The notes below the pieces were generated by a model. That model searched no databases and was not told where the DNA came from. It saw only the letters and a list, made by a program, of their open reading frames with translations. A stretch of DNA of 56,444 bases from a virus (lineage: Duplodnaviria; Caudoviricetes): IMG/VR virus record IMGVR_UViG_3300037585_004733, positions 1-56,444 of that record. One strand, 5' to 3'. This document shows, piece by piece, positions 26,096 through 36,736 of this stretch. The position numbers and the translations under genes were made by a program. How positions within the stretch are numbered: position 1 is the stretch's first letter; each line of letters begins with the position of its first letter.

Positions 26096-26538
26096 ACTGT
26101 TTCATCTCCCAGTGATTGATAAGATACTTCACCAGTTTCTGGGTCAAAGGCTGACTTAGGCTTACTATCTACAAATCCACTATCAGATAAAAATTCTTCC
26201 ACTCCCATAGTAGCTTCTTGATCCCATTGTACTGACATTTCACCTTCTACCATAGCCCAATACAAAGTAAGATATACAATTGCATCTTTAATGCGACCTC
26301 TAATATCTTCTCTTTGAGATGTATAGCCATTTATATGAGCCGTTATGCCATCCATATGCTTCATAAGAAATGTCATCAATACTTTATCTCTTGTAGTATT
26401 TAACTGCCTGGCTGTTCTTTCAAAGTTTGCAAAAACATTGATAGTATCATGAGCATATTCTTTCTGCCCACTATCCCTTGTTTCTTTAACTTCATCTATT
26501 ATTTTGACGAAAAGTTCATCAAATTGTGATTTGTTCAC
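26092..26538 (-). CDS. All-alpha nucleotide-modification-associated protein (DUF1599/Nmad1-like, possible dNTP pyrophosphatase fold)
   Basis: KEYA...FANFE...KH...RIKDAIVY pattern. Confidence 0.55.
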   Translation of the reverse strand: MNKSQFDELFVKIIDEVKETRDSGQKEYAHDTINVFANFERTARQLNTTRDKVLMTFLMKHMDGITAHINGYTSQREDIRGRIKDAIVYLTLYWAMVEGEMSVQWDQEATMGVEEFLSDSGFVDSKPKSAFDPETGEVSYQSLGDETV

Positions 26539-28306
26539 GTGTATTCTCCTTAAATATTCTGTTATTTTCTACTCTTAGACTTACATCTAAGTGCTCACGT
26601 TCTCTATTAGCTTCACATCTTACTCTAAGATATTCTATTAATCCTGTAGTTCTGCTCTTAGATGGAATAACTGATAATAACTTATTAGTATTATAAGCTG
26701 TTCTAAATGAGCCTTTAGCTGATGCCATATTCATATTGCCTTCATGGAATGCAGATTTAGTAATCTCACTAACAGTAAATATAATTAAATTATGTCTTAC
26801 TGCAAGTTCCATCATTGCTTGAGATGCTTCTTCTGTTTTCATATTAGGATCACGTTGTTTAGATTTAAATAAACCCATATGATCAACTACGACTATTTCC
26901 GGTTTGACTGGCAACATCATAATCCTTTTCTCTAACTCACTGGCGTAAGGACTTGAATAATCTACAGTTAGCCATTTAAAACGTTTATCCATACCATTTT
27001 GCATTTGCTGATAATGAGACTTTAAATCATCTTCAGACCATCCCATTTCAATTTGAACAAATCTAGACCATATTTGCCTTGGACTCATTTCCATTTCTAT
27101 AAAGTATGTGGGCCTTTTAAGTCCATTAACAATATTTTGTAAAAGCATTGTTTTCATACTTTTAGGAGGAGCTTGAATAACAACTACTTCTCCAGGATAA
27201 ATAGGAAAATTTTCTCCTTCAAATATAGTTCCTAGATTAAGAGGATCTCTATTTAATCTATAAAAATCAATTAATGCATTTTCCATAGATGAAGAATCCA
27301 TAACTGCCTGGTTTTTCTTAGACTTATAGAGCTTACAGGTTTCTTGGCAATGACTGTCCATGATTTTATCTCCACATCCATATCTATTACCTTGTCCACC
27401 ATGAGATTCATAAGCACTTTTAATAATACTTTCCATTTCTTTAACTGTAAATGGACTACTAGAATCATCTACTTGCTGTCTCCATTGCTCCATAACAATA
27501 CGTACAATTGATTCAGGATAAAGCCATCTAAACCATGCAGAAAGACGTAAAGCAGTAGCATGACGTTCACCTTGTGCATTACTAGATAGCATATTAGAAA
27601 TACAAGGATAATTTACTGGATCAGGATTCCTACCTTGACTAATAAATTCAGGAGTTGCCGGTTCATCCTTTTTCTCTCTTTCTAGTACATCAAAGACAGG
27701 ATTGCATTCTAAATCAAAATCATCTACATCTCCAGGCTTTGTTGCTATTAATTGCATAGTAGCTTTAATATCAGATGCATTTAATTGATTTTTTGTTATT
27801 TGACACTTCCATAATCGAGCTTTTAGATTTTTAGTATTAACAATTCTAATTAGCCTCAGTTTATCTGTTACAGACACATCTGCATATTCAAATATACCTG
27901 CATTAGTCAAAGCATCTTTTACCTTTAAATGTAAGTCTTTGCAAGGCTTCCATCGAAATGCTGCTCCTGGTATTCCAAGATGAAATCCTTTATTGCCAGA
28001 AAAATATAATCTATATGGTATATCTAAGTCATCTAATAATAACGTTAATCCAATAGTTTTTTGTCTAGCATTTTCTAAATCATCAAAATCTTTGCCATCT
28101 ATATCTAATATAAATTCATCAGGCATGTAAACTAGCCCATCAAATCCTGATAATGTTTTATTTTTAGCGAAAAAATCAGTAATGCTGTCATCAAATTCAT
28201 ATAATGACATATATGTATCTCTATCTATATTCATCCAATTGCCTATTTCACTTGTATCCTGAAAGTAATGTCTTTGTGCTAATCCAAAGGCAAATTCTTT
28301 AATCAT
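26519..28306 (-). CDS. AEP primase fused to a PriL/PriCT-like domain and a DnaB/RecA-like helicase
   Basis: LDID, FSGNKGFH and RLIR primase motifs; GERH; Walker A APPKSMKT; FIEMEM; Walker B VVVDH. Confidence 0.88.
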   Translation of the reverse strand: MIKEFAFGLAQRHYFQDTSEIGNWMNIDRDTYMSLYEFDDSITDFFAKNKTLSGFDGLVYMPDEFILDIDGKDFDDLENARQKTIGLTLLLDDLDIPYRLYFSGNKGFHLGIPGAAFRWKPCKDLHLKVKDALTNAGIFEYADVSVTDKLRLIRIVNTKNLKARLWKCQITKNQLNASDIKATMQLIATKPGDVDDFDLECNPVFDVLEREKKDEPATPEFISQGRNPDPVNYPCISNMLSSNAQGERHATALRLSAWFRWLYPESIVRIVMEQWRQQVDDSSSPFTVKEMESIIKSAYESHGGQGNRYGCGDKIMDSHCQETCKLYKSKKNQAVMDSSSMENALIDFYRLNRDPLNLGTIFEGENFPIYPGEVVVIQAPPKSMKTMLLQNIVNGLKRPTYFIEMEMSPRQIWSRFVQIEMGWSEDDLKSHYQQMQNGMDKRFKWLTVDYSSPYASELEKRIMMLPVKPEIVVVDHMGLFKSKQRDPNMKTEEASQAMMELAVRHNLIIFTVSEITKSAFHEGNMNMASAKGSFRTAYNTNKLLSVIPSKSRTTGLIEYLRVRCEANREREHLDVSLRVENNRIFKENTREQITI

Positions 28307-28323
28307 GCTATCTCCTTGTTAAA

Positions 28324-28383
28324 ATAAGAGAGAGCTTTTCCCTCTAAAAGTATTAACCTTGCAGGGCCTAAACTCTCTCTTAT
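28324..28383 (-). promoter_or_regulatory. Structured leader upstream of the primase-helicase
   Basis: 11-bp stem ATAAGAGAGAG/CTCTCTCTTAT enclosing two small hairpins. Confidence 0.55.
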
Positions 28384-28393
28384 AGTTATTTAT

Positions 28394-28912
28394 TTAGAAA
28401 GGAATATCACTTGTTTCTGTGGTAGTCTCTTCAGTAACTTCCATTTTTGGCTTAACATATTCGTTGAAATACCTTTCAGCTTTTCCTTTAAAATATGCCA
28501 CATCTTTAGCATCAAACTCTTCAACTATATTTTTAAATTCAGTTGGAGCAATTTGATTTAAGATTCTAGTAAATTTACCATTCTTATAAAAGAATGCATT
28601 TACTTCTTGTCCGGTTAACTGCTCTGGACCATCATCCATCTTAATAACAGTTTCCCCTGTAGCACTTTCTAAAGCATCAGTGATACCTGCATTTGCAAAT
28701 CTAAATAAATTTCCAATTGCAAACTCTTCTCCATCTTTACCATGCTTTTCATATATTCTCATGTTAAAGTTATCAGGATATCCATCAAACCATACATCGA
28801 TATATTTACTGTCATTATAAGTGCCATATTTTGCATTACTGACGGTTAGTTTATGCCAACCTTCAGTCCATGCACCTGTGCCTTTTTTAGGCAATGTAAA
28901 TGTTCTAGACAT
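28394..28912 (-). CDS. Single-stranded DNA-binding protein (phage type)
   Basis: EGWHKLTV N-terminus, acidic tail ending DIPF, adjacent to ERF. Confidence 0.65.
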   Translation of the reverse strand: MSRTFTLPKKGTGAWTEGWHKLTVSNAKYGTYNDSKYIDVWFDGYPDNFNMRIYEKHGKDGEEFAIGNLFRFANAGITDALESATGETVIKMDDGPEQLTGQEVNAFFYKNGKFTRILNQIAPTEFKNIVEEFDAKDVAYFKGKAERYFNEYVKPKMEVTEETTTETSDIPF

Positions 28913-28922
28913 TCTTACTCCT

Positions 28923-29429
28923 TTATTGTTTCTTATTTACTTGATCGCTAGGACGAGGAGCACGTTTAATTCCGGTATTTCCATCGTCATCTGCTTGTGC
29001 TATACCTACCATCGATGATAGTAAATATCTTCTTCCGTATGTTGTTGCAGCACCTACACCATGAGGATCTTTCTTCATGATTGGCATACGGATTTCACTT
29101 TTAATCCACTCACCTGAACTATGCATTAACATTGATGTAATATAAAAACCATTATTATCATTGTCCCATCTGTTACCTTGAACTAATGCGATTTCATGTT
29201 TATTTAATGCAGGCATTGCAGTTTCTAATACTGATGCTAATGAAGCATACTTACTATTAAAAAATGGATTAGTGCTTTTAGCTTCTACCATTGTCATCTC
29301 ACCTTGAGCTTTAGCTAATGCTCCAGCTATTTTACCAATAGTTTCTGACATTACAGGCTCAAAAGCCTCAAAATCAAAATTATCAGAGTCGAGATAGTCT
29401 TCAACAGTTTTAGTTGTTTCTTCTGACAT
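28923..29429 (-). CDS. erf: ERF-family ssDNA annealing protein
   Basis: NPFFNSKYASL, HSSGEWI, GAATTYGRRYLLSSMVGIAQADDDGN. Confidence 0.93.
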   Translation of the reverse strand: MSEETTKTVEDYLDSDNFDFEAFEPVMSETIGKIAGALAKAQGEMTMVEAKSTNPFFNSKYASLASVLETAMPALNKHEIALVQGNRWDNDNNGFYITSMLMHSSGEWIKSEIRMPIMKKDPHGVGAATTYGRRYLLSSMVGIAQADDDGNTGIKRAPRPSDQVNKKQ

Positions 29430-29546: not shown

Positions 29547-30209
29547 TTACGATACCATAACCGATTTTTCCAATAACATTGTTGGGAAATTAAATGAGAA
29601 TTGTCTGTTAAACGGTTGACCGGTTGCAAGTTTCCTTACTGCATTGGCTATAAAGCTACCACTCATTGAAGAGCAGTAAGCTGTAGCTTTTGCATTACAT
29701 GGTTCTGGACTTCCATTGGAATCAGAATACCATGTCTTTTTATACTTGGATAGAGTAGGCTTATCAAATATATATTGTTGATAATGTTCTGCTCCCATCC
29801 TTCCATCAATAAGAAATTCAGGTTTTACATGCTTATTTACACATAGAGCTTCTACAGCTTGTAGTCTTGATTCCATAGAATCAAATCCAAGAATAGCTAC
29901 ATCATTATTCCCTTGAGAATAATATTCTGTAAATCGCTCATTATATGTATACACCTGACTATTATCATTAATGGACATTATATGTCCTTCTAAGGCATCT
30001 ACTTTTGACTTATTAATATCAGCCAAAGTATATTGTGATACACCTATATTAACTGCCTCAACTTTATCCATATCATATAAACAGAATTGATCTGCACCCA
30101 TTCTGGCTAATTGTAAGGCTGCAGAGCTTCCAATAGCTCCGCAACCTAATATATGAAAAACGAATTGGTCTAAGTTATCTACTAATGCACTTGATCGTGT
30201 ATTTATCAT
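29547..30209 (-). CDS. E1-like (ThiF/MoeB-family) Ubl-activating enzyme
   Basis: ILGCGAIGS, YDMDKVEAVNI, SKVDAL, GFDSMESR, IDGRMG; candidate catalytic Cys in EPC; no CxxC pairs; likely start MINTR at 30209 (TAATG overlap). Confidence 0.92.
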   Translation of the reverse strand: MINTRSSALVDNLDQFVFHILGCGAIGSSAALQLARMGADQFCLYDMDKVEAVNIGVSQYTLADINKSKVDALEGHIMSINDNSQVYTYNERFTEYYSQGNNDVAILGFDSMESRLQAVEALCVNKHVKPEFLIDGRMGAEHYQQYIFDKPTLSKYKKTWYSDSNGSPEPCNAKATAYCSSMSGSFIANAVRKLATGQPFNRQFSFNFPTMLLEKSVMVS

Positions 30210-31111
30210 TAATAAATGCCTCCCCAAGCTACTTCATTGCTTCTATAATCTGCATAAATATCATATGCATTAGAATTACTTCTATAAACATAATCTGCAG
30301 GAGGAGCGAACATTATATCTTCATCAAGAGCCTTTTTACTTAATAAGCCAATTAAATATTCACCGGCATATTTTGTTGCCAACTCATTGTTAAGTTCAGA
30401 TACAGCTTTAGTCCAATCATTATACGATAATGTACCATCAGAATAGCTTTTATTGATTTTATCAATAGAGTCACAAGCATAATTATATTCAGTGGGCTGA
30501 ATAAATACGCTAGTTTGACGATCTTCAACGCTAGGCTTGGCATTTAATGGATAGTTTTTGGTATAAGTAGTCTTGTAAGATTTAGGTGAATAGCTAGTTA
30601 TGGCTTGTTTTGTACATAACTTTCCTACTTCCTTAAGTATAGATTTTGGTACTTTATGTTCATCAGTTATTATTTCTAATTCTACATCTTCATGACAAAC
30701 AAAAGGTTTCCATACAGATACTCTTAATTTATATTCACCTTTTAAATTAACTACCAAGGCAAAACTAAAATCACCATCAGAATATTCTTGAATAGCATTT
30801 AAATCTGTTCCAGACCAGAATGCAGACATAGTATGATGACTATGCCACCATACAAATCTAAAATTCTTATCCTTATACTTAGCTCCGGCTTTGGTATAAT
30901 AAGGAGCTAATGCTTCTTTATCTAATACACAATTCCCAGCACTGATTGCTTGTTTTAATATTACCGGATCTTTTAGATGCCAATCACCTGCTTCATCTTC
31001 GATTGCTACAAGCATACCTCCAATTTCTGATTTCTCAGTATCATAAGCTGCTTGAGAATAATTGTGTATCTTTTTCCAGTCTTTATCATCCATATAAAAT
31101 GTATTTTCCAT
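30209..31111 (-). CDS. JAB/JAMM (MPN+) metalloprotease, putative Ubl-maturing/deconjugating enzyme
   Basis: SEIGG plus HSHHTMSAFWSGTD = E...HxH-x7-S-x2-D. Confidence 0.92.
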   Translation of the reverse strand: MENTFYMDDKDWKKIHNYSQAAYDTEKSEIGGMLVAIEDEAGDWHLKDPVILKQAISAGNCVLDKEALAPYYTKAGAKYKDKNFRFVWWHSHHTMSAFWSGTDLNAIQEYSDGDFSFALVVNLKGEYKLRVSVWKPFVCHEDVELEIITDEHKVPKSILKEVGKLCTKQAITSYSPKSYKTTYTKNYPLNAKPSVEDRQTSVFIQPTEYNYACDSIDKINKSYSDGTLSYNDWTKAVSELNNELATKYAGEYLIGLLSKKALDEDIMFAPPADYVYRSNSNAYDIYADYRSNEVAWGGIY

Positions 31112-31131
31112 TTTTACTCCTTGTTTTTAGC

Positions 31132-32739
31132 CTAAAAAGGCAGTTCAGCATCATTTAAATTAACCCTTGCTTCAGAAATCGTAGGATTAGATCTATATTG
31201 ATCTAATAATGATTGCTCGAGATCTGATGGTGGTTCAAGTTCTTCAAATTCAATCTCAAAATGTTCATGACCTTCAAAAACGTTTTGAACCCAACTATTT
31301 ACATCTTCATAATCGGACATATGCAGGTATTCAATAGCATCTGAAAAATCTATTCTATGAAGATTTATCATTAAAGCTCTAGATAGTCCTGTAGAAGCCC
31401 TACAATTAAAGTGATTAGCAAATTGAGCTTGAAATTCACCTATATAGTGACTAGTAGATTCATAAATATCTAGCCATTTGCGTTTTAATTGATAATAAGA
31501 CCAATTTTCATAATCATCATATGCGGTATTTCCCATTAATCGTAAATCTATTATCAATGCTTCTGATTTTGAGAGTATATCTGTATCGTTAGATCCATAT
31601 ACTTCAATATATTTTTCACAATCAGTTCTTAATAGACATTTATTAACATCACAATAGCTATCTTTCTTATCAATATTGTGATTAATTGAGTAATTGCAAT
31701 TATCACCTCTTGATGAGAAATTTATACCTATATTAGTCCATACTAATGTATCCATTCCGGGTAATTGTCCGAAAAACATATTTTGATATGAATTTAATGG
31801 TCCAGTAGTGCCTATTTTAAAAGATTTAGTCCATTGAGATATTAACATATGATATGCTAATAAATCACCACTATAAGTGGCATTTTTTATATCACTAACA
31901 TAATTACCAAAGCAAACTTGTCCATAACTATCAATTTGACTTCCATGATGATTGAAAATAGGAACTGATGCACTTGATGATAGGTTATTCGGGTTATTTA
32001 TGTAGGGAAATTTTATTCCTTCAAATAATGGCCTAAAAGTAGCGCCATGTGTATCAGATGTATGAGAAGTTGCACTATTAGATCCCAATGTTTGCCCTTT
32101 AATTGACTCAGTAAGCAACTGGATCAAGTCTACACTAGTAAAAACATTAATATCTCCCATTGAAACGATAATTTCTTCATCTCCTGCATATATAGTAGTA
32201 TGAACATTTTTAATTGTAGTTCTAAAAATAATACAATCTCTTTCAATATTTTCATACATACCTATCTTTTTGGATGTAACATAATCTATAGTAGTTTCAA
32301 TATTGTCAATTAAATTATTGGCTGACTCTAGTTGAGACTCTATTTTTTGGATATAATTAGTCATTATTTCTTCTACTTCTTCATCATGTTTCTTAAAATT
32401 TGTATTAGATGCTCTTAATCTATACAAATCATTATCTATAGAAGAAATACTTTCTTTAAATTGATTTATCATCCATTGTTTTTCACTAATAGCATTAAAA
32501 TATGTTGATATTTTTCTTTTTTGGGGAATATCAAACTTATTTAGTACTACATTATGTAACTTTTTATAAAATCTAGGCTGCCATCTAAAAGTTGGAGTTA
32601 TTCTAAAATCAGTTCCAAATCTTTGATTCATTCGCCTTAGTTTTAATAAAATTCTTTCTTGTGGTCCAGCAATTAAATCATTAGCAATTTTCTTTAGATT
32701 GATTAGATTTAAATTTAAGTTCTTTAATGTATAGTGCAT
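31132..32739 (-). CDS. Putative E2-like conjugating enzyme with N-terminal coiled coil and Cys cluster
   Basis: FPYI...GQVCFG...DLLAYHMLISQW resembles the E2 HPxI...GxxC plus helix core; lies between Ubl and JAB. Confidence 0.55.
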   Translation of the reverse strand: MHYTLKNLNLNLINLKKIANDLIAGPQERILLKLRRMNQRFGTDFRITPTFRWQPRFYKKLHNVVLNKFDIPQKRKISTYFNAISEKQWMINQFKESISSIDNDLYRLRASNTNFKKHDEEVEEIMTNYIQKIESQLESANNLIDNIETTIDYVTSKKIGMYENIERDCIIFRTTIKNVHTTIYAGDEEIIVSMGDINVFTSVDLIQLLTESIKGQTLGSNSATSHTSDTHGATFRPLFEGIKFPYINNPNNLSSSASVPIFNHHGSQIDSYGQVCFGNYVSDIKNATYSGDLLAYHMLISQWTKSFKIGTTGPLNSYQNMFFGQLPGMDTLVWTNIGINFSSRGDNCNYSINHNIDKKDSYCDVNKCLLRTDCEKYIEVYGSNDTDILSKSEALIIDLRLMGNTAYDDYENWSYYQLKRKWLDIYESTSHYIGEFQAQFANHFNCRASTGLSRALMINLHRIDFSDAIEYLHMSDYEDVNSWVQNVFEGHEHFEIEFEELEPPSDLEQSLLDQYRSNPTISEARVNLNDAELPF

Positions 32740-32899
32740 TTTTTAATTCTCCTTTGCATTGATTGCATTTTACTTTTTTTAATCCATAAGTAGGGAAGCC
32801 TTCATATACTTCGCTACAAATTGTACGTTTATTATAATTATATTGCTCTAGCCAGACACCTTTACATACAGGACAAGCTTTTAACTCATTTTTATTCAT
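32681..32899 (-). CDS. Zinc-ribbon protein
   Basis: CPVCKGVW...CNQC. Confidence 0.65.
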   Translation of the reverse strand: MNKNELKACPVCKGVWLEQYNYNKRTICSEVYEGFPTYGLKKVKCNQCKGELKNALYIKELKFKSNQSKENC

Positions 32900-32918
32900 T
32901 TAAAGATTCCTTAATTAT

Positions 32919-33229
32919 ATTCTAAGCCACACTCTCTTAATACGCAGTCAACACATTAATTTCAATCACTTGAATAAAATGTGGCTTTAGAATGTTAAAA
33001 TTATGTCATAACAATTATTATACAGTATAAACAGTGACACTCGAGGTATGCTATCTCACCTGCAATTAAAGATAAAGATCAGGCAGTCCTTTATCTGCTA
33101 TGACATATAAATATTTGGGGAAGCCTAACTCCTTAAACTTCCCCTATGCGATGACAGTCTCATGCTTTCAGGCCATGATGAGTAGTTCACCAACTATCAT
33201 TTAATTTTTGGGTGGTTTAACCTCCACCC
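32919..33229 (-). ncRNA. Cluster of structured intergenic RNA elements inside the Ubl cassette
   Basis: Inverted repeats at 32919-32993, 33002-33107, 33117-33144 and 33210-33229. Confidence 0.45.
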
Positions 33230-33253
33230 TAGGTTCAGGAGACAATTAATGTC

Positions 33254-33460
33254 TTAACAACCACCAGTCTTATTCGACTGAACTGCAGCTACTAAGTCAT
33301 CATCTTGCAATTGATAAGAACTACTTACATTATCGCCATTAACAGCAATAGTTGCATTAGAATCAATATTTAATTCTTCACGCAATTCGCAAATAGTTTC
33401 ACTTTTAACTTCCTGTGTGACGAATCCGCCACCACTTAACACTTTGATCTTACGAGCCAT
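33254..33460 (-). CDS. Ubiquitin-like beta-grasp protein ending GG-C
   Basis: KIKVL...TICELREEL...IAVNG...YQLQDDDLVAAV...KTGGC; 68 aa; GGAG RBS. Confidence 0.88.
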   Translation of the reverse strand: MARKIKVLSGGGFVTQEVKSETICELREELNIDSNATIAVNGDNVSSSYQLQDDDLVAAVQSNKTGGC

Positions 33461-33477: not shown

Positions 33478-34161
33478 TTACGAGTTAACTAGTATATCAT
33501 CATCACCATCAGAATTGATAGTCAATGATAATTCTTTTCTTTCTTCTACAGCTTTAATTACTTCATCACGAGGTATCATAAAGCTCATAGCAGACTTTAG
33601 AGTATATGCTGAGCCTACATTAAAGACCCAATATAATACTTTACGTAAAGAACGTTTAGTCACTTTACCAGTATATGAAGCATACATATTAATTGTAGCT
33701 AAATAAGTAAAAGGACTTTTATTTTCTTTATTAATACGTTTTAGTACCGGAATACCGCCTAACGTTTTAAGAGCAGTGATACAATTATGAGTTCTATCAC
33801 TTATTCTATTATGCCCACCTTTAAGATATATTTCAAGCTCTTGGGATGGACTCATTTTCATAACGCCATCATTAGTATGCATAAATAATTCTTCATATTC
33901 TTTCTTTGAAGATATATCTTTTACTACTAATGCAGGTATTTGTGCATCGGGGTCAATATAAGATAGAGCTGTAGCTCTTCTATGTCCGTCGATTAACTTT
34001 TTGTCTTCAGTTATAAGTACTGGAGTAATAACACCAGTTTTCTTAAAACTCAAGGCTAATGATTTAACTTTATTAGTTCTTTCTGCCGGGTTTAAGCTTG
34101 AATATTTCAGCTCTTTAACCGGAATAGATATTAAATCATAATCATATTGTTTTAATTGCAT
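33478..34161 (-). CDS. ParB/Srx N-terminal domain protein
   Basis: IPVKEL...LNP...LALSFKKTGVITPVLI...LIDGHRRATAL. Confidence 0.85.
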   Translation of the reverse strand: MQLKQYDYDLISIPVKELKYSSLNPAERTNKVKSLALSFKKTGVITPVLITEDKKLIDGHRRATALSYIDPDAQIPALVVKDISSKKEYEELFMHTNDGVMKMSPSQELEIYLKGGHNRISDRTHNCITALKTLGGIPVLKRINKENKSPFTYLATINMYASYTGKVTKRSLRKVLYWVFNVGSAYTLKSAMSFMIPRDEVIKAVEERKELSLTINSDGDDDILVNS

Positions 34162-34393
34162 TTTTGCCTTCTTTCTTTTCTTTTATTGGTTCACCGGCTG
34201 CATCTCTAATTGAGAAGAGCCCTTTTATTTCATCTTCACTACTATCGTCATCAGTATGATTTAAGATAGCGTCTACATATCCTAAGATATAAGTTTCTGC
34301 TTCTTGCATGTAATCAAATGGACGGAGAGGGTGATCAGAGACCACCCCATCCTCTTTGACAGACAAGAACACAATATAATTAGGCTGTTCCAT
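34142..34393 (-). CDS. Hypothetical protein
   Basis: ORF tiles within the operon. Confidence 0.6.
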   Translation of the reverse strand: MEQPNYIVFLSVKEDGVVSDHPLRPFDYMQEAETYILGYVDAILNHTDDDSSEDEIKGLFSIRDAAGEPIKEKKEGKNAIKTI

Positions 34394-34580
34394 TGTTGCT
34401 ATTCCCTTGCTTTTTAAGGAACCTAAGACCGGTTAATTCAAAATATCGTCTTTTGGTTGCCTCTATAAGAGTATCAGTTACGGTAACGCCAAATTCAGTC
34501 TTAGCTCCTAAGCCAAGCTTCTTGAATTTCTTTAATTGTCCTTTATAGAAACCTATTAGTTCTATGCGATTAATTGTCAT
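34380..34580 (-). CDS. Hypothetical protein
   Basis: Likely start MTINRIELIGFY at 34580 with AGGAG RBS. Confidence 0.6.
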   Translation of the reverse strand: MTINRIELIGFYKGQLKKFKKLGLGAKTEFGVTVTDTLIEATKRRYFELTGLRFLKKQGNSNNGTA

Positions 34581-34920
34581 TCTTTCTCCTTTCAAGAATA
34601 TATTGTACGTGTATTTCTTTGGGCATCTTCCCGCCGAAGTAATGTTTTGTTGCAGCACATAGCCACATAGTACTTGTAGTAGTATATTCATCATAAACAC
34701 CACCACCAGACTCTTCATGTTGTAAATGTAAAGTATAATCTGATGTTGGAAAGCTTCTATTTGAAAATACGAGACTAATCTTTTCGTCTCCTTTAGCAAG
34801 ATAATCCAAGAAAGTATCTGCTCCTGCTACAAATGGTTCTTTTACTAAGTTATAATTTGGCTCATCAAACACCCACATAGGGCCATGTTTATAAGCATTT
34901 ATAACACTTAAACTGTTCAT
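34570..34920 (-). CDS. DUF6717-like protein
   Basis: MNSLSVI.AYK...WVFDE...LVKEPFVAGAD...WLC...YF...P pattern. Confidence 0.7.
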   Translation of the reverse strand: MNSLSVINAYKHGPMWVFDEPNYNLVKEPFVAGADTFLDYLAKGDEKISLVFSNRSFPTSDYTLHLQHEESGGGVYDEYTTTSTMWLCAATKHYFGGKMPKEIHVQYILERRKNDN

Positions 34921-36543: not shown

Positions 36544-36666
36544 ATTTAATAATAAAGCACATCACATCTTTCATCTCTAAGCTATTGATTTAGATGTATA
36601 ATGTGCCACGATATCGTTATGAAGGCTAATAAACAGGGCCGTTGCTACGATATACTTTTAATTTAG

Positions 36667-36736
36667 TTGCGGGGGACAGAGTCGAACTGCCCAGATCAAG
36701 CTTATGAGGCTTAAATTGCTACCGGCATTCCCCGCT
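36667..36736 (-). tRNA. tRNA-Met(CAU)-like, atypical short D arm, A1:A72 mismatch
   Basis: Acceptor GCGGGG/CCCCGC; anticodon arm TAAGC-CTCATAA-GCTTG; T arm GGCAG-TTCGACT-CTGTC; no encoded CCA. Confidence 0.8.

Follow-up and report, generated by a model that had tools for sequence, protein, structure and literature searches.

A candidate ubiquitin-like conjugation cassette in the replication module of a phage genome

The window, that is, the whole stretch of DNA analyzed, is a complete phage genome of 56,444 bp with direct terminal repeats; together with its terminase, portal, capsid, and endolysin genes, these repeats confirm its phage origin. The original prediction also called the phage apparently lytic, and the absence of an integrase among 49 ORFs is compatible with such a lifestyle but does not prove it. 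Its central claim was that five co-oriented genes ahead of the ERF, SSB, and primase genes specify a ubiquitin-like (Ubl) tagging pathway: a 68-aa beta-grasp Ubl ending in KTGG-C, a zinc ribbon, a 535-aa protein with an FPYI...GQVCFG core, a JAB protease with an intact E/HxH-x7-S-x2-D motif, and an E1/ThiF enzyme with a GxGxxG motif and a candidate cysteine in EPC. All five ORFs were found where predicted, on the minus strand and with these motifs in place.

33254..33460, minus strand: Ubl precursor, 68 aa, ending KTGGC, a ThiS/MoaD-like beta-grasp candidate
32900..33253, minus strand: non-coding spacer of 354 nt that separates the Ubl gene from the other cassette genes and contains two G+C-rich hairpins
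33144..33117, minus strand: terminator-like hairpin in the spacer, one of the two
32681..32899, minus strand: Cys4 zinc-ribbon protein, 72 aa, CPVC ... CNQC (Pfam Zn_ribbon_TFIIB)
31132..32739, minus strand: putative multidomain E2-like protein, 535 aa (AF2 models and family alignment)
30209..31111, minus strand: JAB/JAMM metallopeptidase, 300 aa, catalytic domain at about residues 20-140
29547..30209, minus strand: minimal E1/ThiF-type adenylating enzyme, about 220 aa (Pfam ThiF)
29429..28923, minus strand: ERF recombinase (ERF, E 2.2e-21), downstream of the cassette
28912..28394, minus strand: SSB-like 172-aa protein ending SDIPF, downstream of the cassette
28306..26519, minus strand: primase-helicase (primase and DnaB-like PHROGs), downstream of the cassette
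26519..29429, minus strand: block of the last three genes, conserved downstream neighbors

The order of the ERF, SSB-like, and primase-helicase genes is kept in most of 45 loci; the SSB-like protein gave a DUF669 lead only and no family match. The order Ubl, E2-like, JAB, E1 is likewise kept in related viral contigs wherever the flank suffices, and in loci with enough flank JAB was present in 35/35, the E2-like gene in 27/27, and the Ubl gene in 25/25, so that the predicted co-occurrence in related phages holds. Given this order in all such loci and a 535-aa protein family of 151 cluster representatives (E<=1e-3), the cassette is more than a chance arrangement; it is a fixed part of the phage replication/recombination module. 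The ParB-like gene directly upstream of the cassette in this phage had a tblastn match in 1 of the 45 loci and is not conserved together with it. A comparison with PRTRC (ParB-Related, ThiF-Related Cassette; TIGR03734-03742) had been proposed, and there is some likeness in the mobile-element cassette, ThiF-type E1, JAB-type protein, and small Ubl and, in this one phage, in the ParB-like neighbor. Membership was rejected, as all three matching models fell far below their family cut-offs (ThiF, 22.4 versus 144.75 bits; protein A, 15.3 versus 101.8; ParB, 16.4 versus 278.6).

The Ubl matched Pfam ThiS slightly under the cut-off (E 6.3e-4; 20.7 versus 22.5 bits). Of the 23 members of its family, 9 matched ThiS at E<=0.01, the strongest of them at 5.1e-5. 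K64, G66, and G67 (K-x-G-G) are invariant in 23 sequences, and the Gly-Gly is followed by 0 to 62 residues (one here, Cys68), which is the pattern of a precursor needing trimming. The spacer contains no ORF of at least 40 aa and no Rfam match, and in relatives its position is occupied by small variable ORFs. The zinc ribbon scored just above the Zn_ribbon_TFIIB cut-off (E 6.8e-5; 22.6 versus 22 bits), and its ORF shares 59 nt with the start of the 535-aa ORF, an overlap also seen in relatives. With tblastn matches of 35-40% identity in loci L003, L004, L007, L008, and L009 and CxxC mini-ORFs at the same position in L002 and L019, it is an accessory component confined to one subclade, where it invariably lies immediately upstream of the E2-like gene and overlaps it.

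The residues on which the functions of the JAB and E1 proteins would depend are the following.

31013-31027, minus strand: EIGGM, holding the predicted JAB general-base Glu
30803..30850, minus strand: JAMM zinc motif WWHSHHTMSAFWSGTD, HxH-x7-S-x2-D, intact
29670..29708, minus strand: E1 cysteines PEPC177 and AYC185, invariant (n=15), following the DGRMG strand

JAB residues E29, H90, H92, S100, and D103 are invariant in 16 sequences. The protein matched Pfam Prok-JAB below the cut-off (E 1.6e-4), PADLOC JAB models (E 1.2e-7), and, as a profile against the PDB, Rpn11-like 6fjv_A over residues 20-122 (E 1e-4); its C-terminal half has no assigned function. The predicted overlap of the JAB stop and the E1 ATG in TAATG is real and couples their translation. 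The listed E1 start is a TTG at 30227 (30227..29547), but the start most likely lies at 30209, since relatives begin at that Met (MIN...). The E1 is a clear ThiF match (E 2.4e-19; 69.9 bits, cut-off 28.1) that contains LGCGAIGSS and keeps the conserved nucleotide-site residues, with R11, GCGAIGS, D52, K75, D116, DGRMGAEHYQQY, C177, and C185 invariant in 15 sequences; an E1~Ubl thioester might form on either cysteine. The enzyme consists of a single Rossmann adenylation domain and has neither a rhodanese nor a UFD domain nor an inserted Cys domain. That it lacks an E2-binding domain and an inserted Cys domain counts against a conjugation cascade. NCBIfam ThiF/MoeB/UbaA/Cap2-type models all matched far under their equivalog cut-offs, those of ThiF best. 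In the PDB, the E1 profile matched MccB, UBA5 (E 2.8e-10), UBA6, ThiF, Cap2, and BubCD, and the E1 also matched the E1 part of PADLOC "E1-E2" models (E 5.6e-14), over only about 100 of its residues.

A further point against a cascade is that the Ubl resembles in sequence only ThiS and MoaD, which are sulfur carriers. This, the ThiF-type E1 matches, and the surrounding DNA-metabolism genes would suit a sulfur-carrier pathway in which JAB trims the Ubl, E1 adenylates it, and the resulting thiocarboxylate donates sulfur during phage replication to a nucleic-acid or small-molecule modification, the Cys-rich 535-aa protein being a new sulfur-transfer or modification enzyme. Triads of ThiS/MoaD, a MoeB/ThiF-type E1, and JAB, with a GG-ended beta-grasp protein whose tail is trimmed, are placed in sulfur assimilation by Iyer et al. 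2006 (PMC1779556, Table 1, row 4). However, rhodanese, cysteine desulfurase, PP-loop ATPase, and radical-SAM families had no Pfam match among the 49 different window ORFs scanned (12 + 37), in line with the earlier report of no desulfurase, rhodanese, or thiouridylase; the cassette has no biosynthetic neighbor, its E1 has no rhodanese domain, and its always-linked partner, with an invariant Cys, is modeled with a UBC fold, a fold not known from sulfur transfer. The sulfur might yet come from a host enzyme, but we consider this pathway quite improbable. JAB-ThiF pairs also occur in crAss-like phages and Flavobacterium phage FpV4, where an E1 about 30% identical to ours follows directly on a Prok-JAB-like gene in a replication module with primase and uracil-DNA glycosylase genes; the pairs are annotated "thiamine biosynthesis protein" and "metalloprotease domain." The 420-426-aa proteins encoded upstream of these pairs did not resemble the E2-like profile in hhalign comparisons (probability <1%), and no GG-ended small ORF was found within 6 kb.

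The case for conjugation turns on the 535-aa protein, which comprises an N-terminal helical domain (1-115), a UBC-type domain, a Cys4 module (348-374) that may bind metal, a helical, variable C-terminal region, and a disordered tail.

31750..32385, minus strand: UBC (E2/UEV)-type fold domain, residues ~119-330, as modeled by AF2
31999..32010, minus strand: FPYI, residues 244-247, after the fourth strand; family motif [H/F]-P-[Y/F]-[I/V]
31912..31914, minus strand: Cys276, candidate Ubl-accepting (catalytic) cysteine, in GQVCFG; C-x-G-[D/N] directly before a helix
31618..31698, minus strand: Cys4 module C348, C363, C368, C374, present in 65, 65, 64, and 66 of 66 members
31135..31179, minus strand: disordered C-terminal tail ...ARVNLNDAELPF, pLDDT <50 for residues 521-535

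AF2 models of the protein (pLDDT 76, pTM 0.68) and of the domain alone (pLDDT 77.6, pTM 0.77) support the predicted UBC fold, with the order helix, four strands, loop, Cys, and two helices. VIA fold matches of both models were mostly E2/UEV/RWD chains, covering 116-137 residues of ~150-residue targets; E2/UEV chains made up 37 of the 50 rows listed and, on a second look, all of the top 18, unrelated rows lying lower. Foldseek with these models gave no match at E<=1e-3, sequence-family searches with the protein gave no family match, and its family had no PDB sequence match. Searches with 66 members found 59 families, and none of the 25 of these that were listed is an E2 family; a residue-by-residue superposition of Cys276 on an E2 catalytic Cys was not obtained. 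By its position, FPYI is the counterpart of the E2 "HPN" motif (in 66 members, H 48 and F 15; P 64; Y 52 and F 14). Cys276 is present in 66/66 relatives, is also invariant in a 23-sequence alignment, and is followed by G278 in 65/66; the loop from the fourth strand to Cys276 is of low model confidence and variable length. Family members are 410-738 aa long and have no conserved His after the Cys.

UEV (TSG101, Vps23) and RWD-type chains score level with true E2s, the Asn of "HPN" is absent family-wide, and its His is replaced by Phe in this phage. Tagging may thus be E2 independent in the style of archaeal SAMP/UbaA, with E1 alone activating the Ubl and handing it to targets, the 535-aa protein serving as a non-catalytic UEV/RWD-like scaffold for Ubl or targets, and Cys276 being structural. 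Sampylation is not known to need more than E1 and JAMM, and SAMPs, too, are ThiS-like. Against this stands the conservation of Cys276 in its C-x-G-[D/N] context, as this cysteine is typically lost from non-catalytic UEV and RWD domains (Iyer 2006), and the gene order is that of Bil, which requires its E2 cysteine (PMC10557695). We regard an E2-independent system as unlikely.

The acidic-LPF tip of the 535-aa protein resembles the tips of SSB-like proteins in the same phage group. A PF ending was found in 46 of 310 ORFs of at least 150 aa in the window and loci, divided by length and N terminus into 43 SSB-like and 3 E2-like proteins; across the wide E2-like family it occurs in only 9 of 99 full-length members, which counts against the cascade reading. 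A conserved ...RWAxxxGG(A/S)xN(L/I) ending is found in 28 of 100 family members, and W/Y-GG-x(1-9) forms the C terminus of several JAB proteins, among them that of this phage (...AWGGIY). CBASS Cap2 activates a cyclase C terminus, and the JAB and E1 resemble Cap3 and Cap2 models; by analogy, the E1 might activate the Gly-Gly-containing C-terminal tails of the JAB and E2-like proteins encoded beside it, or the Ubl might be ligated to a non-protein acceptor; the cassette would then join something other than free Ubl to something other than a protein lysine. However, the cassette always includes a dedicated Ubl gene, whose GG is invariant, this phage's own E2-like protein has no GG tail, and no nucleotidyltransferase or other CBASS part was found in the window ORFs by Pfam and PADLOC. 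Conjugation of this kind seems to us very improbable.

Bil, a bacterial ubiquitination-like anti-phage system, is among the closest known systems. The bilA-B-C-D order is Ubl, E2, JAB, and E1 as separate genes (PMC10557695), and BilABCD (type I and type II) and the class 6d/6c operons (Iyer et al. 2006) have the same four functions in the same order as the phage cassette. Further likenesses are one or more residues beyond the reactive Gly of the Ubl, which JAB removes, and, in BilB, a divergent loop linking the fourth strand to the Cys (both from PMC10557695), as well as the lack of a separate E3. The predicted comparison with Bil stands for gene order and logic but does not extend to the E2 motif or to the minimal E1: the phage E1 lacks the inactive second domain, inserted Cys domain, and four-Cys zinc site of Bil E1, and the phage E2-like domain is only one part of a 410-738-aa protein with [H/F]-P-[Y/F]...C-x-G and no conserved His after the Cys. 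The phage Ubl, moreover, is ThiS-like, and the setting is a replication module rather than a bacterial defense island. CBASS type II Cap2 (an E1-E2 fusion) and Cap3 (JAB) are likened to the cassette by the PADLOC matches, but the phage E1 and E2 are unfused, the Ubl has a separate gene, and both a CD-NTase and an effector are lacking. UBA5 is a short homodimeric E1 with its Cys within the adenylation domain; its place among the best E1 matches, and that of UFC1 (7nvk, 3kpa) among the fold matches, recall the UFM1 system, although the phage proteins have no sequence-level membership, the Ubl was not UFM1-like in searches, and no UFSP-type protease is present.

The original reading of a phage Ubl tagging pathway is supported overall by sequence and models, and we suggest, with modest confidence, that this phage probably encodes its own Ubl conjugation cascade of Bil-like build with much smaller and more divergent parts. 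We base this on the family features of E1, JAB, and Ubl, the modeled E2-like fold and invariant Cys276, the match to the bilA-B-C-D order, the conserved linkage, the JAB-E1 coupling, the SSB-tip mimic, and the absence of a sulfur-relay partner among the 49 ORFs. All steps proposed here derive from sequence and models. JAB would trim the residues beyond Gly-Gly from the Ubl precursor (a single Cys in this phage and as many as 62 residues among relatives); the E1, which probably forms homodimers as ThiF, MoeB, and UBA5 do, would adenylate the exposed C-terminal glycine and may carry the Ubl in thioester linkage to Cys177 or Cys185; and the Ubl would pass to Cys276 in the UBC-fold domain. The 535-aa protein would combine E2 and substrate adaptor, its conserved N-terminal helical domain, variable pre-Cys loop, Cys4 module, and fast-evolving C-terminal region selecting the partner and target lysines, and JAB could also take the tag off again. 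As possible purposes, the original prediction named the modification of host defense or replication proteins and the jamming of host Ubl immunity. The choice of target is the weakest step; since the cassette lies in the replication module and the E2-like protein has an SSB-like acidic-LPF tip, the likeliest targets would be phage or host replication, recombination, and repair proteins that bind SSB tails, and the tip hints at the replisome as the place where such a phage-encoded tagging system may act.

The cassette lies in the leftward early/replication arm of the phage genome, which is marked by a strand switch at ~24.9 to 38 kb, and its genes, together with the gene that precedes them, were located as follows.

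34161..33478, minus strand: ParB-like gene, directly upstream of the Ubl gene
33460..33254, minus strand: Ubl gene
32899..32681, minus strand: Zn ribbon gene
32739..31132, minus strand: gene for the 535-aa E2-like protein
31111..30209, minus strand: JAB gene
start ATG at 30209, minus strand: E1 gene, with TAATG common to the JAB stop and the E1 start

The original prediction of co-oriented genes for a Ubl, a Zn ribbon, a 535-aa protein, a JAB peptidase and an E1 was borne out by minus-strand open reading frames (ORFs) in precisely this order, and the proposed JAB-E1 overlap was likewise found. After E1, in transcription order, come ERF, a 172-aa SSB-like protein (28394-28912, minus strand) and a primase-helicase, as the original prediction had them; the SSB label is soft, as the 172-aa protein gave no Pfam, NCBIfam or PHROG match and its sole Atlas lead was DUF669, present in 15% of one neighbouring cluster. 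The Ubl and Zn ribbon genes are separated by a 354-nt ORF-free gap (32900-33253) with two G+C-rich hairpins; the hairpin at 33144..33117 is terminator-like, and nothing in Rfam matched this spacer. On the other side of the Ubl, the ParB N-terminal-domain protein (33478-34161, minus strand) matched the PHROG ParB-like family at 2.7e-8 and fell under the Pfam cut-off. Just upstream of it lies a gene for an 83-aa protein (34142-34393, minus strand) that is kept beside the Ubl in seven related loci at 46 to 55% identity, and further upstream are a DUF6717 protein (34570-34920, minus strand) and the single tRNA-Met (CAT) gene of the early arm (36666-36736, minus strand).

The 56,444-base record has direct terminal repeats and a completeness rating of 100%, and its G+C content ranges from 31 to 39%. 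PHROGs and Pfam identified small and large terminase subunits, a P22-type portal, an SU10-type capsid protein and adaptor, an endolysin and a tail spike, as well as a RusA-like/PD-(D/E)XK resolvase. No integrase family was matched among the 49 different ORFs of the window put to Pfam, which is compatible with a lytic phage and is not proof of one. Four very large ORFs (1858, 1137, 1483 and 1228 aa), with several mid-sized ORFs between them, fill positions 1757-24829 on the plus strand, and neither they nor the intervening ORFs had any PHROG or Pfam match. A blastn search of isolated phages with the cassette region gave no match, and no isolated phage has a large terminase more than 27% identical to that of the window, so that no cultured relative is known.

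The family of the 535-aa protein was too divergent for a pattern search, and the protein itself retrieved no related loci when used as a probe of viral contigs; E1 therefore served as the probe, and 62 pattern-matching stretches yielded 45 confirmed viral loci with E1 proteins 55 to 79% identical to that of the window. By tblastn with the window proteins, 36 of these 45 loci contain JAB, 24 contain Ubl and 21 contain the 535-aa protein; where JAB is missing, E1 stands at the very start of the locus. When searched with profiles, which were partly derived from the same 45 loci, JAB was present in 35/35 loci whose sequence upstream of E1 exceeds 950 nt, the E2-like gene in 27/27 exceeding 2,400 nt and Ubl in 25/25 exceeding 3,300 nt, so that the synteny in related phages on which the original prediction had been staked holds wherever it could be observed. 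Across the loci with room, Ubl, E2-like, JAB and E1 genes lie on one strand in a single order, followed in almost all loci by SSB-like and primase-helicase genes and in many by ERF. The cassette is real, phage-borne and strictly conserved. Ubl (53 to 73% identity) and JAB (26 to 57%, most 39 to 57%) are, like E1, well conserved; the E2-like protein is poorly conserved, at 19 to 36% identity and 410 to 738 aa. The number of variable small ORFs between the Ubl and E2-like genes of the relatives ranges from none to about eight, and the Zn ribbon occurs in a single subclade only. We rejected the ParB-like gene as a component: its tblastn match in only 1/45 loci (L025, 36%) indicates that it probably lies outside the cassette. 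Among species-representative genomes, eight loci were returned, in three of which the match to E1 covered most of the query. One of these, the short contig L047, has the four genes of the cassette, and another, L049, shows a looser grouping together with AAA ATPases. The third, L048:3801-10353, from a Nitrospirota metagenome-assembled genome, encodes a di-Ubl (ThiS plus SAMP2), a 512-aa protein, JAB, ArdA, E1 and an integrase, with the ArdA anti-restriction gene sitting between JAB and E1 and a RuvB-like ATPase beyond the integrase; its 512-aa protein contains H-P-H...C-L-G, which hhalign aligned with the family motif at motif level only (29% probability).

The assignments of E1, JAB and the GG-ended Ubl are secure, the Ubl being a candidate member of the ThiS/MoaD-type beta-grasp family. 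E1 is a single domain of ~220 residues whose ThiF identity, as predicted, was confirmed by Pfam ThiF (PF00899; 69.9 bits against a cut-off of 28.1; one domain, residues 13-216). The NCBIfam ThiF, MoeB, UbaA, PRTRC-ThiF and Cap2-type models were matched far under their cut-offs, and among solved structures the E1 profile matched MccB, UBA5, UBA6, PaaA, ThiF, TcdA, Cap2 and BubCD. In an alignment of 15 sequences, R11, the GCGAIGS loop, D52, K75 and D116, which from MoeB/ThiF structures we take to be ATP-site residues, are invariant, and the DGRMGAEHYQQY block and the candidate thioester cysteines C177 and C185 are likewise kept. JAB fell under the 25-bit cut-off of Pfam Prok-JAB (21.9 bits), matched PADLOC JAB models at an E value of 1.2e-7 and aligned as a profile with the archaeal Rpn11-like JAMM structure 6fjv_A (E value, 1e-4). 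Its E...HxH-x7-S-x2-D zinc motif is intact, as had been claimed, with E29, H90, H92, S100 and D103 invariant in 16 sequences; nothing matched its C-terminal half of ~150 residues. The Ubl scored 20.7 bits with Pfam ThiS (PF02597), just below the cut-off of 22.5, nine of 23 Ubl relatives matched ThiS at an E value of 0.01 or less, and MoaD structures were matched at an E value of 0.087. A sulfur-carrier role is judged improbable. K64, G66 and G67 are invariant in the 23-sequence Ubl alignment, and beyond the GG the tail is absent in L047 (1/23) and 1 to 62 residues long in all others (from 1 to 5 up to 22 in L016 and 62 in L003); an invariant GG beneath a freely varying tail is the pattern expected of a peptidase-trimmed precursor.

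The 535-aa protein was named by no family of Pfam, NCBIfam, PHROGs or PADLOC. None of the Pfam E2 models (UQ_con and Prok-E2_A to E) matched the window protein, there was no E2 family among the 25 families listed of 59 when 66 relatives were put to Pfam, and the family profile found no route to an E2 family among PDB sequences; an Atlas search returned weak Prok-E2_D (0.81) and UQ_con leads, below Atlas's own bar. A word-indexed search found two outside relatives only, and an exhaustive one yielded 151 cluster representatives at an E value of 1e-3 or less, 61 at 1e-10 and 8 at 1e-30, counts that take in the protein's own cluster. The family has a conserved core at about residues 14-390 and a variable remainder. 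C276, W303, P314 and C374 are invariant in the 66-sequence alignment, the cysteines at 348, 363, 368 and 374 are each present in 64 to 66 of the 66, and the signature reads [H/F]-P-[Y/F]-[I/V]-S...C-x-G-[D/N] (His in 48 and Phe in 15; Pro in 64; Tyr in 52 and Phe in 14; Cys in 66; Gly in 65), continuing with W303, T-x-P-L-N (312-316) and G324. The third position of what would be an HPN motif before the Cys is Tyr or Phe and never Asn in the 66 relatives, Phe replaces His in this phage, and no invariant or nearly invariant His occurs anywhere in the alignment.

Support for an E2-type protein came from predicted structure. AlphaFold2 run on the 66-sequence alignment gave a pLDDT of 76 and a pTM of 0.68, and a second model of residues 112-400 from 23 phage sequences gave 77.6 and 0.77. 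The predicted model of the 535-aa protein contains the elements of a UBC fold, namely, an N-terminal helix, a four-stranded sheet, an active-site loop and C-terminal helices, and Cys276 (66/66) is placed by the predicted order of secondary structure between the fourth strand and the second helix. With either model, Foldseek produced no PDB match at an E value of 1e-3 or less, although its best-ranked rows included UEV chains of TSG101. A VIA comparison listed 37 E2 or UEV chains among 50 rows; of the other 13, nine were kinetochore, listerin or RWD proteins, presumably RWD-type versions of the UBC fold, and four were other proteins. A T-fold was considered and dropped, as the GTP cyclohydrolase I entries returned by Foldseek were gone from the best 50 rows (Z down to 2.2) once its 1000 best chains had been aligned anew. 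The E2-like assignment of the original prediction is supported at the level of predicted fold and by an invariant Cys, but not by sequence: E2 sequence models gave no match and an HPN motif is absent.

The absence of the HPN Asn, the Phe in place of His in this phage and the fact that UEV and RWD domains without catalytic activity score as high as true E2s cast doubt on a working E2; the retention of Cys276 in every one of the 66 sequences favours one. On balance we lean towards conjugation of the Ubl through the Cys of the E2-like protein. Tagging that is independent of an E2, with the 535-aa protein serving as a scaffold, appears unlikely; some other chemistry is highly improbable.

In the portions of the Bil study drawn on here (PMC10557695), the order bilA-bilB-bilC-bilD is constant, the residue after the reactive Gly of BilA is removed in pre-processing by BilC, a divergent disordered loop of BilB between strand 4 and the Cys is proposed as a target selector, and conjugation requires the E1 and E2 cysteines. 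As far as that account extends, each of these four points has a counterpart in the phage cassette, which is like Bil in its order of Ubl, E2-like, JAB and E1, in the one-residue tail beyond the GG of its Ubl and in the low-confidence, length-variable loop at residues 252-267 of its E2-like protein. It is unlike Bil in that its E1 is a single ThiF domain, whereas BilD has two adenylation domains, one inactive and one active, together with an inserted, mobile Cys domain and a zinc site of four Cys, and in that the His kept after the Cys of BilB has no counterpart in the phage family. The PADLOC models that matched bore only JAB and E1-E2 names, and the output of the libraries used contained no Bil model. 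The Bub system, in the part of its description used here (PMC11601596), forms Ser and Tyr oxyesters and has a peptidase-E1 fusion, an arrangement that the phage cassette lacks. Membership in PRTRC was rejected on scores of 22.4 against 144.75 bits for TIGR03736 ThiF, 15.3 against 101.8 for TIGR03735 protein A and 16.4 against 278.6 for TIGR03734 ParB. The E1-E2 fusion Cap2 of type II CBASS is matched partially by the phage E1 in PADLOC, and none of the nucleotidyltransferase or effector families of CBASS was found by Pfam among the 49 ORFs of the window. Distant E1 genes (~30% identical) occur in 81 records of isolated phages, mostly Flavobacterium and Bacteroides (crAss-like) phages, where the gene is annotated "thiamine biosynthesis protein." In Flavobacterium phage FpV4 (locus L055, 3536-6606) and crAss-like phage cr111_1 (locus L056, 3406-6636), the ThiF gene is immediately preceded by a JAB-like gene and the pair adjoins primase and uracil-DNA glycosylase genes, and neither phage showed an E2-like relative (hhalign of the upstream proteins) or a GG-ended small ORF within 6 kb. 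In the sections of Iyer et al. (2006) considered here (PMC1779556), phage Ubl-JAB pairs are placed only within tail-assembly clusters, and operons with E1, E2, JAB and Ubl are restricted to bacteria and bacterial mobile elements; no description of a phage-encoded E1-E2-JAB-Ubl cassette was found in CC-licensed PMC papers or bioRxiv.

The C termini of the cassette proteins were also compared. The E2-like protein of the window ends in ...NLNDAELPF (31135-31179, minus strand), a stretch modelled as disordered. Among 310 ORFs of at least 150 aa in the window and the 45 related viral loci, 46 end in Pro-Phe; 43 of these are SSB-like proteins of 172 to 200 aa, recognized by length and N terminus rather than each by alignment, with tips such as ...SDIPF, ...AELPF and ...DDLPF, and the other three are the E2-like proteins of the window, L002 and L007. 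In the 172-aa protein of the window the tail is acidic, with DIPF as its last residues. Bacterial SSB and T7 gp2.5 recruit partners through acidic tails ending in Phe, and an E2-like protein with an SSB-like tip would carry the putative ligase to those partners as well. In the wide E2-like family, an acidic-x-Pro-Phe end was present in nine of 99 full-length members, and the ending ...RWAxxxGG(A/S)xN(L/I) was commoner (28/100 members; proteins P0009-P0150). Several JAB proteins end in W/Y-GG-x(1-9), that of the window in ...AWGGIY (30212-30229, minus strand), so that up to three cassette proteins have a GG near the C terminus. A tentative scheme, which we regard as distinctly unlikely in its entirety, is that an entire lineage of uncultured, apparently lytic phages employs its own ubiquitin-like ligase in replication. 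An E2/E3 hybrid, by imitating the C-terminal tip of SSB and by other C-terminal peptides that evolve fast, would dock onto readers of SSB tails, such as the phage primase-helicase or, in the host, nucleases of replication, repair or defence, and would attach the 67-residue Ubl to the docked proteins, which would thus be rewired or disabled during infection.

To our knowledge, bacterial Ubl conjugation has so far been shown as an anti-phage weapon (Bil and CBASS Cap2/Cap3) or is uncharacterised on plasmids. If correct, the proposed scheme would be the inverse of the bacterial Bil defence, in which phage proteins are tagged. In this phage lineage the cassette is a constant core element of the replication module and follows the same logic as bacterial Ubl conjugation, with an unusually small E1 and an E2-like family of 151 cluster representatives for which there is no database model. 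If it conjugates, it would provide a minimal, tractable E1-E2-DUB-Ubl set and a new branch of the E2 superfamily, and it would be the first case found, as judged from CC-licensed PMC papers and bioRxiv, in which a phage tags proteins by means of its own Ubl.
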